Part shown: positions 33,501 through 39,500 of the stretch, in pieces | How positions within the stretch are numbered: position 1 is the first letter of the stretch | Layout: the number at the start of each line of letters is the position of its first letter | Source of the DNA: a virus | Lineage: Duplodnaviria > Heunggongvirae > Uroviricota > Caudoviricetes | Direction: 5' to 3' (one strand) | IMG/VR virus record: IMGVR_UViG_2651869695_000008 | DNA length: 45,692 nucleotides | Program-made: the position numbers

Positions 33501-36500
33501 CTTTTGTGTTCCCCTGTTTTGAGGGATAGCAATCCCCCAATTTGAGGGATGTTTTATCCCTCGTTTTAGGGGATTTTCCCTCGTTTTGAGGGATACACCA
33601 TTCTGAGATGTTTTTGTTTGGTCCAAACATGCCGCCTTGCTGCTTGATAATATTCATTCTGACGAGTTCTAACTTGGCTTCATTGCACCGTTTGACAGGT
33701 AACTTTGTAATCTCGCTAAGTTGAGAATCGGTGATTCTGTCCATTGGTTTATTCCACCCATAGGTTTTACGCAGAATGGCAAGCAGCACTTTAAACTGTC
33801 GCTTGGTCAGATCTGCGCCCGAATAAGCCTCAAGCAGCATATTTGATAGTCTGGCGTAACCATCATCGAGATCTGCCACATTACGCTCCTGTCCGGCAAA
33901 GTTACCTCTGCCGAAGTTGAGTATTTTTGCTGTATTTGTCATAATGACTCCTGTGGATTGATCCAGTAATGACCTCAGAATTCCATCTGGATTTGTTCAG
34001 AACGCTCGGTTGCCGCCGGGCGTTTTTTCTTTGTGATTTCATCAAGCGCATACTTAAAAGCCCTACTAATCGGACTGATGTCTGATGCCATTCCGAAAGC
34101 ACACAAGACCGAAGCAATAAACCTCCAGTCTGTTCTGCTTATCTTCGATTCATGACAGCCAATCATCTTTGCCAGACCGCGCTGGGTAAGCGTTGACAGG
34201 TTGATGAGTAAATCTGTTTCTGCGCGATCAACGTCGCGCTGTGATAGTTTGCTGTAACTTGTTTGTGTCATTTCTTACTATTCCCATAGGTAAATAATCA
34301 CTAACACTCATCTTTCGATGAGTGCTTAATTAGTTACCGCGTTGTCGGCGGTGCAGATTGATAAAGAGCGGTGTTACTTATGCAGCCAGAAGGTTCTTTT
34401 TGCTTATTTCAAGCATTTCGCTTGCTTGATATTTGCCACCAGAAATCTCTTCGATTTTTGATGCGTATTTAGTTTTCCCAAAAAACTCAGTCTTAGGGAG
34501 GAAGCCGTTTTTGAGCCACTTATAGACAGCCCTTTCGCTAACTCCACAAGCCTTCGCAACTTCAGGGATGCCGACACCTTTAATCGGCTCATCAAGATTT
34601 TGCATAGGAATACCCTTTTTCGTACTTTCAGTACGCATTATGATTGAACTGAAAGTTTTTGCAAGTGCTTTAGTATCGTACTCATGGTTCAGAATGAAAA
34701 AGTGCGCAAAGAATTCGCCCAGCGGCTAGCGCAAGCCTGTAAAGAAGCTGGTCTTGATGAACATGGTAGGGGAATGGCCATAGCCCGTGCCCTTTCTCTT
34801 TCGTCCAAAGGCGTTAGCAAATGGTTTAATGCTGAGTCTTTACCACGCCAGGAAAAAATGAATGCGCTTGCGAAATTTCTAAACGTTGATGTTGTTTGGC
34901 TTCAGCACGGCACTTCGTTAAATGGAGCGAATGATGAAGATACTTTTTCAATTGTTGGCAAATTAAAAAAAGGGTTAGTGCGCGTGGTTGGTGAGGCAAT
35001 TCTTGGTGTTGATGGTGCCATCGAGATGACCGAAGAGCGCGATGGGTGGCTCAAGATTTATAGCGATGATCCAGATGCCTTTGGTCTTCGTGTAAAAGGA
35101 GACAGCATGTGGCCCAGAATTAAATCAGGAGAATATGTACTCATTGAGCCTAACACCAAAGTATTCCCAGGTGATGAAGTGTTTGTCAGAACCATTGAAG
35201 GGCACAACATGATCAAGGTTCTTGGCTATGACAGAGACGGAGAATACCAATTTACAAGCATCAATCAAGACCACAGGCCAATAACGTTGCCTTATCATCA
35301 AGTAGCAAAGGTGGAGTATGTGGCTGGTATTTTGAAGCAATCTCGCCACCTAGATGACATCGAGGCAAGGGAATGGATTAAAAGTTCGTGACTTCATCGT
35401 CACATAGCTGGTAACCAATGGCCTGAAGAGACGTTTGGGTGACAAGAAGCATAGGTATTAACAATAACTTTCATGGTGATACGAATCAGTGGCTAAAAAA
35501 GGCGACTTTAAGCCTACCCAGAAAGAGGTTGACCAAGCTATTACTCGCTTGAAAAAAGTAACTTTTAGCGGAGTTTCGTGGACCGGAAGTGAGGGACGAA
35601 CCCCAATCTGGTTTAAATTGGATCTCAAAGCTTTTGATGAAATTGGCAACCCAATCACAGGCATAAGATTTATGCTTCACTGGCGTTCTCCTATCGTTGA
35701 AGGGGTGGATATAGTGAAGCTTTCATTTGTGATGTTTCTTCATGACAGGCGCATTTACGCGCTTGACCCGTACCCTGCGCATAACAAGTCACACCGTAAT
35801 AAATCTATAGTGCACCATCCAGATTTTGTTGAGGTGGCTCGAGGTCCTCACTATCACATGTACTTCGAATCAGCTGGGGAAGAAATTGCACTCAAGCTTG
35901 AAACGAACATCAAGCCAGATGATTTTTTTGGCTACTGGAATTATTTTTGCGAGGCGCTTAATATCATATATGAAGGCAGCCCACCTTTACCGAATCAAGA
36001 TAAATCAGGTCAGCTATCATGGGAAATGTAACGTGTTCAACAGTCATATCTAAGCTCGGGTTTGAATGCCACCCAATGAGCGACACGTTGCTGCGCGTTA
36101 TTAGTCCCTTCACATACTACGATGATTGTGAGCAGATAAGCGTATTCGTTCAAGAGATGAGTGGTCAGTATAGGGTTACAGACTACTGCGATACATTGAT
36201 GAATATTGAATCACGCGGCATCCACCTGACTAAAAAGAAAATTGATCTGATCAGGTCATCACTCGCTTCGCAAGGAATTTCATTAAATGACTCTGGAGAG
36301 ATATCTGCGTGGGCAGATGAGTCGTCCGTTGGACAGGTAACTGCAAATGTTATTCGTGGTGGGATTCTTGCATCCGCCCAAACTGCTGATTGGTATGCTG
36401 AGGTCAAAGACGATAAGTTCGAAAAATGTGTAATCAGTTACTTAAAATCAGCAGGGCTTGGGAAGCGACTAGCCTTAAAGGAAAAAGTGAAAGGTATTAG

Positions 36501-39500
36501 TGGGCATAACATTACTGTTCCGTTAACGCTAAGGAATGAGTCTCGACTAATACCACCAAAACGCGGGTTTACGGTAAGCCTTGCCAGCAGTAAAGGATGG
36601 AATACTGCCCACTCAACAGTTGGGAAGATTGTTGACTTAAGTCAGGTCGTTCCTGACATAAACAATAGATTTGTAATAGTTGACAGCGATGGGTTAACAC
36701 CTGAGCTACAGCAACTATCACTACTATTTAATGATACCGCACGAGTGTTGCCATTCCATACCAGAGACTCTTGGATTGACTCTCTGGTAGCCTAGAAAAA
36801 CCCGGCCTCTGCGCCGGGTTTTCTTTACCTCACGTTCGCCTCCCCTATTTAACATCCGCATATGTGCTAACCCACGAACTAACACGCCAGCAATACAGTC
36901 CTTTCTCCCCTACAGACCAATCTTCAATCTTTGCAAAAATAAATTTCATTACATATCAAAAACTTATCTAATAAAATTAAAGAGTTGCAAAATCTCGTAC
37001 TTGCAGTTCTTGATAATATCGAACCATTAGTTCATTATTATCGCCGTCAGCAGGATGCTGGCAGCCAAACGGAACAGATTGGCAGGCTCTTTAACTTCGA
37101 TGGGGCGCTGACAAAGCGCAAACAGATACCAAACGAGATGGATTTGGCGGTGATGTGAATTGCAGCTGCAACGACAGCAACCAGAAGATCAGCATCTGGC
37201 ACATCACCCCCAAAGCCATTTCACATGAGGAAAACATCATGACGGTAATCGTGTACGGGAAATCAACATTTGCAGGAAATGCCAAAACTCGCCGTCATGA
37301 GCGGCGCAGAAAGCTGGCTATCGAGCGTGATGCTATATGCAACATCATCGATTCGATCTTCGGCACAGACAGTGAGGAACCTGTTCAGGAAGCCCCGAGA
37401 AAACGTTTAAGCCTTTCTGAAAAAGCAATATCACTCGGAAGCCTTCGCTGCCAGAAGGCAGAAGAAGTCGAGCGTAAACAGAACCGTATTTACTACCGCA
37501 AGCCACGCAGTGAAATGGGTGTGACTTGCTCAGGCCGCCAGAAGCAACGCGGAAAATCAATTCCAGCTTATTACGATTGAGGTGAGCCATGCTCAAGAAA
37601 GTCAAACGCCGACTTTACAAAGAAGGTAGATATTCATGCCAGTTGCAAAAATGCGACACAACAAAATGGAGTGTCGATGATTGGTGTAACTGGATAGATA
37701 GATACGGAACTTGGTGGGATAAATAACAGGTAACTTAAGCGTATTTACTTTCGCAGCAAACAACTTATTTGAGGTGATATATGGAAGAAGAATTTGAAGA
37801 GTTCGAAGAGCATCCTCAGGATGTGATGGAACAATACCAGGACTATCCGTATGACTACGACTATTGATAAAAATCAATGGTGTGGACAATTCAAGCGATG
37901 CAATGGATGCAAGCTGCAATCGGAATGCATGGTTAAGCCTGAAGAAATGTTTCCTGTAATGGAAGATGGGAAATATGTCGATAAATGGGCAATACGAACG
38001 ACGGCAATGATTGCCAGAGAACTTGGTAAACAGAACAACAAAGCTGCCTGATAGTGACCTTTATTTTTGGCATAAATAACAGAATAAACACTGCACTGTG
38101 TATTCATTCCAACGAGTGAATACACGGAGCAATGTCGCTCGTAACTAAACAGGAGCCGACTTGTTCTGATTATTGGAAATCTTCTTTGCCCTCCAGTGTG
38201 AGGGCGATTTTTTATCTATGAGGATATGAATAGATGTCAAACATCAAAAAATACATCATTGATTGCGACTGGAAAGCATCAATGGAAATTGAAATCGACC
38301 ATGACGTAATGACAGAGGAAAAACTTCACCAGATTAATAATTTCTGGTCAGACTCTGAATACCGACTCAATAAACACGGCTCTGTATTAAATGCTGTATT
38401 AATCATGCTGGCGCAACATGCTCTGCTTATAGCAATTTCAAGCGACTTAAATGCATATGGTGTTGTGTGTGAGTTCGACTGGAATGATGGAAATGGTCAG
38501 GAAGGATGGCCTCCAATGGATGGTAGCGAAGGAATAAGAATTACCGATATCGATACATCAGGAATATTTGATCCAGATGATATGACTATCAAAGCCGCCT
38601 GAGCGCGGCGTTACCGCATACCAATTACGCTTCACTCGAGGCGTTTTTCGTTATGTATAAATAAGGAGCACACCATGCAATATGCCATTGCAGGGTGGCC
38701 TGTTGCTGGCTGCCCTTCCGAATCTTTACTTGAACGAATCACCCGTAAATTACGTGACGGATGGAAACGCCTTATCGACATACTTAATCAGCCAGGAGTC
38801 CCCAAAAATGGATAAAAAACTTATGGCTATCCAGACAAAATTCACTATTGCCACTTTTATTGGCGATGAAAAGATGTTTCGTGAGGCCGTCGACGCTTAT
38901 AAAAAATGGATATTAATACTGAAACTGAGATCAAGCAAAAGCATTCACTAACCCCCTTTCCTGTTTTCCTAATCAGCCCGGCATTTCGCGGGCGATATTT
39001 TCACAGCTATTTCAGGAGTTCGGCCATGAACGCTTATTACATTCAGGATCGTCTTGAGGCTCAGAGCTGGGCGCGTCACTACCAGCAGATCGCCCGTGAA
39101 GAGAAAGAGGCAGAACTGGCAGACGACATGGAAAAAGGCCTGCCCCAGCACCTGTTTGAATCGCTATGCATCGATCATTTGCAACGCCACGGGGCCAGCA
39201 AAAAAGCCATTACCCGTGCGTTTGATGACGATGTTGAGTTTCAGGAGCGCATGGCAGAACACATCCGGTACATGGTTGAAACCATTGCTCACCATCAGGT
39301 TGATATTGATTCAGAGGTATAAAACGGATGAGTACAGCACTCGCAACGCTGGCTGGGAAGCTGGCTGAACGTGTCGGCATGGATTCTGTCGACCCACAGG
39401 AACTGATCACCACTCTTCGCCAGACGGCATTTAAAGGTGATGCCAGCGATGCGCAGTTCATCGCATTACTGATCGTTGCCAACCAGTACGGCCTTAATCC

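Follow-up and report, generated by a model that had tools for sequence, protein, structure and literature searches.

A two-gene cassette in the rexA-rexB position of a lambda-like Escherichia coli prophage is a candidate lysogen-expressed anti-phage system

The DNA analyzed here is a stretch of 45,692 nucleotides (IMG/VR record IMGVR_UViG_2651869695_000008, called the window) that represents a lambda-like prophage of Escherichia coli. We focused on two adjacent genes of its immunity operon, named here X1 and X2, which lie on the cI strand between the cI repressor gene and the terminator preceding OL and PL, that is, in the same place as rexA and rexB of lambda, and which are candidates for a lysogen-expressed anti-phage cassette. 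Several complete E. coli genomes contain the DNA of the pair (35489-36830) in their chromosome at 100% identity. The original prediction had described a layout of cI, X1, X2, a terminator, and nutL with N, and all of these elements were present, as follows.

34620-34649, between cro and cI: OR-side operator-like sequence (TCGTACTTTCAGTACG...), in direct repeat with 36995-37024
34684-35391, plus strand: cI repressor of 235 amino acids (aa), 933W/1H12 immunity type (Pfam Peptidase_S24, E 3.5e-16, plus HTH_3)
35419-35442, plus strand: intergenic relic of a lambda-type cI 3' end (WPEETFG and stop), left junction of the cargo cassette
35489-36031, plus strand: X1, a candidate effector of 180 aa that starts with GTG and resembles DUF6978 and PDC-M24A
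36019-36795, plus strand: X2, 258 aa, DUF1828 N-domain and DUF1829-like C-domain, PDC-M24B-like, candidate regulator or sensor
36796-36826, plus strand: intrinsic terminator, tIMM-like, closing the cI-X1-X2 unit (free energy -21.4 kcal/mol), right cassette junction
36995-37038, plus strand: OL operator-like repeat of OR with a PL-like promoter (TTGATA-17-CATTAT)
37105-37119, plus strand: hairpin (GCGCTGACAAAGCGC, a single exact match in the window) that we take to be a nutL boxB of the P22 type
37239-37580, plus strand: antiterminator N with the arginine-rich motif GNAKTRRHERRRKLAIERD (Pfam N_peptide, E 5e-26; a RefSeq coding sequence stands at the same place)

The cI stop codon and the start of X1 are separated by 97 nucleotides (nt). 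X1 has no in-frame start upstream of its GTG, and its N-terminus (MAK..) is kept in homologues, which begin with GTG or TTG. The ATG of X2 is placed 13 nt within the 3' end of X1, while distant homologues show a 4-nt overlap of the ATGA type. Both are real genes under purifying selection (ratio of nonsynonymous to synonymous substitution rates about 0.06-0.1; when more distant copies are compared, synonymous sites are saturated), and their diverged copies are free of stop codons. Between cI and the pair no intervening terminator was seen and no convincing separate promoter was found; the sole match resembling -35 and -10 elements within these 97 nt is so placed that the transcript would have next to no leader, and it was discarded. 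A perfect short hairpin (35387-35404, GTGACTTCATCGTCAC) spans the cI stop codon; it lacks a U-tract on the plus strand and does not terminate transcription of cI. The unit is closed by a GC-rich hairpin, AAAAACCCGGC-CUCUGC-GCCGGGUUUU followed by CUUU (z -3.5 against shuffled sequences), that starts directly after the X2 stop and was overlooked by a consensus terminator scanner because its U-run can pair with the A-run that precedes it.

According to the original prediction, neither protein resembled RexA, RexB, SieB or any recognized family, and neither had obvious transmembrane segments. Pfam RexA, RexB and SieB indeed gave no match to X1 or X2 at E <= 1, and the highest 19-residue Kyte-Doolittle means were 1.22 for X1 and 0.79 for X2, so that neither protein has a transmembrane segment. 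The lack of a family, however, was not borne out: X1 is DUF6978-like and X2 has a DUF1828 and a DUF1829-like domain, each falls into a protein group of PHROGs (phrog_2017, E 9e-73, and phrog_1960, E 6e-119, respectively), and both are related to the PADLOC system PDC-M24. X1 matched Pfam DUF6978 (PF22398) with 21.1 bits (E 4e-4), below the gathering threshold of 29.6 and through its C-terminal 60 residues only, and PDC-M24A with an E of 1.5e-3 through its C-terminal 50 residues only. X2 matched DUF1828 (PF08861) over residues 30-112 with 40.9 bits, above the gathering threshold of 22, and PDC-M24B through its N-domain only (E 6e-7). No PADLOC match other than PDC-M24 was obtained for either protein, and NCBIfam gave none.

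The relatives of both proteins made these assignments clearer. Full-length matches to PDC-M24B were found for the X2 homologues of phage ev207 (E 5e-10) and Burkholderia phage phi644-2 (E 1e-10), and PDC-M24A was matched by the X1 homologue of ev207. The part of PDC-M24A to which X1 and its homologue could be aligned is the C-terminal region with the His motif, the N-terminal two thirds of X1 being unmatched. Among the X2 family, DUF1828 was matched by 57 of 62 members and DUF1829 (PF08862) by 11 of the 62 at E <= 0.1; the C-terminal half of Burkholderia gp47, an X2 homologue, reached 23.4 bits for DUF1829, above its gathering threshold of 22.2, and the X2 of the window itself gave no Pfam match to it. 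DUF6978 was matched at E <= 0.1 by 11 of 59 X1 family members, the best at 2e-6. Because the two proteins match both components of one cassette in the same order, we treat X1-X2 as a putative divergent branch of the candidate PDC-M24.

PDC-M24 is one of 145 PDC candidates, which were proposed because their genes lie inside loci for BREX, DISARM and type I restriction-modification (RM) systems; it corresponds to the cassette FAM_00129>>FAM_00065 with 153 RefSeq instances (Payne et al. 2024, bioRxiv 10.1101/2024.01.29.577857). Like X1-X2, it consists of two co-oriented genes, the first for a small A protein and the second for a B protein of about 255 aa. It differs in setting, since the contexts retrieved for the X1-X2 branch were prophage immunity regions. 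The DefensePredictor study (Science 2026, PMC13092281; Tables S5 and S10) lists an ev207-type pair, about 40-50% identical to that of the window, as "Predicted novel defense gene": WP_001062368.1 (X1-type, 185 aa) obtained log-odds of 4.9-5.4 and WP_000968518.1 (DUF1828, 250 aa) 5.6, with an HHpred probability of 98.8 for DUF1829, the strict cutoff being 4. The identifier of its X1 cluster, WP_001074607.1, is the window-type allele annotated in E. coli HUSEC2011. Thus, a defence prediction for this pair is not new, as it has been flagged by two independent published pipelines, PADLOC (as PDC-M24) and DefensePredictor. A literature search retrieved no functional study of DUF1828, DUF6978, PDC-M24 or any family member, though a member may already have been tested. 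Our own contribution is to connect the window allele with PDC-M24, to place the cassette junctions exactly, to show how widely the pair is linked to repressor genes and to give a predicted structural picture, in which X1 is without a solved relative and X2 would join a chaperone-like domain to a nuclease-like domain lacking the catalytic motif.

The window allele was present in 61 of 5426 complete E. coli genomes, once per genome. A second allele, about 40% (X1) and 51% (X2) identical, occurs in phages ev207, ev017 and PhiR63_2 and in many enterobacterial prophages, and distant members (22-31% identity) were found in prophages of Pseudomonas, Azotobacter, Marinospirillum and Burkholderia. A DNA search of the phage collection did not find the window allele, only relatives at the protein level with at most 51% identity. 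The X2 family is small, with 211 representatives (50% clustering) among 1.84 billion proteins, nearly all of about 250 aa and without informative fusions. A genome scan with a narrow alignment returned 16 species. X1 and X2 were adjacent in 101 of 101 pooled loci (for ten Pseudomonas-type loci adjacency is known from gene tables), and in one further locus an insertion sequence (IS) element separates them. The order, X1 then X2, and the gene overlap are kept over the whole range from E. coli to Burkholderia, the overlap in nearly all of the loci studied.

The original prediction had proposed looking for the pair in other prophage immunity regions, and this is where it was found. In nearly all loci from Enterobacterales, Pseudomonas and Burkholderia the next upstream gene on the same strand encodes a phage repressor, and at least 15 repressor types in three bacterial orders are involved. 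The proteins encoded upstream form 15 clusters at 60% identity within Enterobacterales alone, most of them with a helix-turn-helix (HTH) and an S24 domain and two being short HTH repressors. In the exceptions one extra cargo gene stands before X1: a PDC-S48-like gene between repressor and X1 in Pseudomonas, or a DUF3024 gene, which is PDC-S43, in loci L072-L076 and in several species-representative genomes. A few distant loci have no obvious repressor.

A clinically important host is the O104:H4 lineage of the 2011 outbreak (HUSEC2011, NZ_HF572917.1, 1914472-1915778). Its copy of the cassette, with 98.7% DNA identity, is carried by a lambdoid prophage of the non-Stx kind adjoining ynfH and stands behind a different repressor of the lambda type. 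The same prophage also encodes RelE/ParE, Doc and HokD toxins. Two further loci deserve mention on their own account. In Pseudomonas phage VB_PaD_phPA-G (PP083311.1; locus L003, 2989-3504) the X1 homologue is not annotated in GenBank; the reading frame has the conserved His motif and occupies what looks like a 670-bp gap, sharing 4 nt with the X2 homologue. In Aquipseudomonas campi (locus L025, 5001-8953) a 2.7-kb insertion, encoding a transposase-like protein of 453 aa (probably of the ISL3 family, as judged by eye) and a second open reading frame, removes the 3' end of X1 and leaves X2 intact.

The limits of the cassette could be placed by comparison with phages that share the immunity of the window. 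The cI gene and its flanks share about 97% DNA identity with phage 1H12 and with Stx2a phages. Essentially the same cI and N region occur in 1H12, in the Lambda_ev series and in many Stx2a phages, none of which carries the pair. Homology of these same-cI phages with the window stops at 35417 or 35442 and resumes at 36799/36800, which gives the cassette an extent of about 35443-36799. On the left, the 24-nt box at 35419-35442 is an exact match to the true cI 3' ends (..WPEETFG and stop) of ev207 and of loci L013-L020, where it is sometimes found twice, and in some prophages the second cI-end box stands just before the cassette. Since the cI of the window belongs to another type, the box is left stranded there between genes, and it looks like a putative recombination linker for cargo swaps. 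On the right, the junction is the terminator, which is common to different cargos.

The same slot of 1H12 (locus L005, 2422-3321) is occupied by a gene for a single protein of 299 aa without a family, and that of the Stx2a phages (in Stx2_EH0505, locus L006, 1853-2194 and 2342-3199) by genes for a DUF3024 protein (PADLOC PDC-S43, E 7e-42) and a NYN-domain protein; these cargos look like further defence candidates. Since cargo is swapped at defined junctions, the slot from cI to the terminator is, judging from these alignments, a recombination hotspot with conserved linkers, and X1-X2 is dispensable cargo. A housekeeping phage function for the pair was excluded by the cargo swaps in same-cI phages. 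Stx2_EH0505 also has a second partial cI 3' end and immunity terminator (5426-5774 and 6107-6163 of the same locus) about 2.5 kb downstream of the first, which suggests a duplication or the scar of a past cargo exchange.

The structure of X1, modelled from an alignment of 59 sequences, was predicted with confidence as a mostly beta protein (predicted local distance difference test, pLDDT, 87; predicted template modelling score, pTM, 0.84). This fold matched no solved structure, the PDB gave nothing meaningful when searched by sequence, be it with single proteins or with family profiles, and Foldseek against the viral models of BFVD returned one uncharacterized X1 relative. K22, H102, H121 and H123 are invariant in the family, position 66 is basic in 100% of it, R88 (98%), an acidic residue at position 93 (98%), N158 (97%) and P120 (93%) are nearly invariant, and the variable N-terminal part of X1 lies outside the PDC-M24A and DUF6978 profiles. 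Two roles were considered for X1 and set aside. A cupin-like metal site (HxH(x3-4)E) is contradicted by the fold search, which shows no cupin, and by the poor conservation of the Glu. A repressor protease like ImmA would need a HEXXH motif, which X1 lacks, and most partner repressors are self-cleaving S24 types.

The model of X2 (pLDDT 81, pTM 0.53) has two domains. The N-domain resembles the fold of type III secretion chaperones and YbjN (SicP, ShcA, DUF2170), although no secretion system is involved. The C-domain is predicted to have the alpha-beta-beta-beta-alpha-beta core of the PD-(D/E)xK superfamily, as in NgoMIV, MunI, Cfr10I and the nuclease domains of Can2/NucC. The secondary-structure elements come in an order that fits both folds, but the likenesses are at the level of the fold only, with identities of 4-17%. 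The catalytic D...(D/E)xK of strands 2 and 3 was not conserved in any of 111 X2 family members, and because of its absence from these strands the predicted nuclease-like domain is either disabled or highly unorthodox. The conserved polar residues in these 111 members are D55 (100%), G159 (96%), D206 (95%) and D36 (90%), together with S161, G162, E94 and position 203, which is K in 72% and otherwise includes R.

In lambda lysogens, rexA and rexB are both expressed as part of the repressor operon and form an exclusion system. X1 and X2 share slot and strand with them, yet have no sequence similarity to RexA or RexB and different predicted folds, and whereas RexB is polytopic the X1-X2 pair includes no membrane protein. 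The bstA gene of Salmonella phage BTP1 likewise adjoins a repressor gene. BstA resembles X1-X2 in being prophage-encoded and is described as an abortive-infection defence (PMC8585504); it differs in acting as one protein, to which a cognate anti-BstA DNA element belongs, and has no homology to X1 or X2. X2 can further be compared with DS-6B, the non-catalytic partner in the validated defence system DS-6/HipAD, which combines DUF3037 with DUF1829 and is predicted to bind the toxin kinase and DNA (PMC13092281). Experimental evidence on DUF1829 domains is limited to DS-6B. As with X2, it has a DUF1829-class domain and is encoded by the second gene of a two-gene system, but the DS-6 effector is a HipA-like kinase whereas X1 is DUF6978-like, and the N-domain of DS-6B is DUF3037 instead of the DUF1828 of X2.

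Based on this evidence, the cassette is probably an anti-phage system of some kind. The particular form that we favour, an accessory lysogen-expressed cassette that acts most likely as a toxin-antitoxin-like abortive-infection pair, falls a little short of even odds (about 0.45). In this model X1-X2 would be transcribed with cI from PRM (and PRE), as rexAB is in lambda; translational coupling would fix the X1:X2 ratio and the GTG or TTG start would keep X1 low. The N-domain of X2, similar to secretion chaperones and YbjN, would bind and restrain X1, while its endonuclease-like, apparently non-catalytic DUF1829 domain would bind DNA or a phage cue. Upon superinfection X1 would be released or activated, and its cluster of His, Lys and Arg residues (K22, R88, H102, H121, H123) could serve in catalysis or metal binding, with nucleic acid as the most likely target, so that infection is aborted. 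The presence of PDC-S43 and a NYN-domain protein in the same slot of sister phages, and of RexAB in that of lambda, supports a role in defence. The proposed division of labour is supported by the non-catalytic precedent of DS-6B, by an X2 family without D...(D/E)xK and by the invariant His and Lys residues of X1. A bolder version, in which X1 founds a new enzyme fold with a site made of a His triad plus Lys/Arg and is the effector of a mechanistically new abortive infection, gated by a chaperone-like and disabled-endonuclease protein, in a promoterless cassette that rides any repressor operon via the conserved recombination linker, is doubtful.

Several observations weigh against this interpretation. 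The scores of the window proteins with PADLOC and DUF6978 are weak (E 1.5e-3, a partial 6e-7 and 4e-4), PDC-M24 is itself only a candidate, the X1 fold provides no functional clue and the interdomain geometry of X2 is uncertain, as its pTM indicates. The retrieved contexts are nearly all behind a phage repressor and none is in a defence island, which would fit a role tied to the repressor equally well. The prophage pair PDC-M63, another PDC candidate, had no activity when tested in its native host. The overall validation rate of DefensePredictor was 45%, and neither accession of the pair is present among the 94 + 24 cloned transcription units of its Table S6 (PMC13092281). The original prediction of a strong candidate for a new exclusion or abortive-infection module thus survives in part: the slot in the immunity operon, the swappable cassette and the two pipelines speak for it, but the prediction is not new and calling the genes unknown was an overstatement.

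Three other explanations were weighed. X2 could be an active nuclease with a non-canonical site (S161, K203, D206 and possibly D36, D55 and E94 of the N-domain) and X1 its specificity or regulatory subunit, so that phage DNA would be degraded directly and no abortive infection would be involved. Enzymes of the CCGG family such as Cfr10I and NgoMIV have a rearranged active site with an acidic residue contributed by a helix, and the acidic and basic residues of X2 listed above (D55, D206, D36 and K/R203) are nearly invariant throughout the family. However, none of the 111 members has a D at the start of beta-2 or a (D/E)xK on beta-3, the cassette contains no mechanism to tell self from non-self, such as a methyltransferase, and the sole validated DUF1829 protein is a non-catalytic partner. 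We consider a direct nuclease unlikely. A role outside defence, in which X1-X2 modulates the lysis-lysogeny switch or the induction of its own prophage, would explain why essentially all retrieved loci in the three orders are linked to a repressor gene and why phage genomes yielded no member at any other position. It also has a precedent in this very slot, as RexA has a documented role in biasing the lambda switch (PMC11077077). The diversity of the repressors, at least 15 unrelated types with and without S24 domains, argues against a specific switch partner, sister phages with the same cI and operators manage without the pair, and PDC-M24 relatives were identified in BREX, DISARM or RM loci, outside immunity regions. 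We consider such a modulator quite unlikely.

The pair could also be a toxin-antitoxin addiction module that stabilizes the prophage by post-segregational killing, with no anti-phage benefit. The pair looks the part, being made of two small genes that overlap and of which the first has a weak start codon, the HUSEC2011 prophage that bears the pair has several classical toxin-antitoxin genes elsewhere, and in one genome X1 is knocked out by an IS while X2 is intact. An integrated prophage, though, gains little from addiction of the plasmid style, and no known toxin-antitoxin family was matched in Pfam, NCBIfam or PADLOC. We consider pure addiction very improbable. Many prophage modules of the toxin-antitoxin type act as defence, so this explanation overlaps with the abortive-infection pair that we favour and does not exclude it.

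Outside the cassette, two details of the rightward part of the region may be mentioned. The operator-like repeat of OR at 36995-37024 overlaps the promoter-like site at 37010-37038. A 23-nt inverted repeat (37135-37157 and 37200-37222, 87% complementary, 42 nt apart) stands just upstream of the N start codon and, by analogy with the RNase III site of the lambda N leader, may form a hairpin for processing of the leader or for translational control.

If confirmed, X1-X2 would be a further validated defence system in the classic RexAB slot. DUF6978, DUF1828 and DUF1829 would each gain their first function, and the chemistry of a protein fold without a solved relative would be revealed. The pair is directly testable, as it fits in a 1.4-kb insert and both E. 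coli hosts and phage panels exist. Its presence in clinically important strains, including the 2011 O104:H4 lineage, means that it could affect phage therapy and prophage dynamics. More generally, our comparisons suggest that lambdoid prophages have a cargo hotspot with defined junctions, stocked with defence candidates, which reaches from the stop codon of cI to the immunity terminator, and this slot could be mined systematically.

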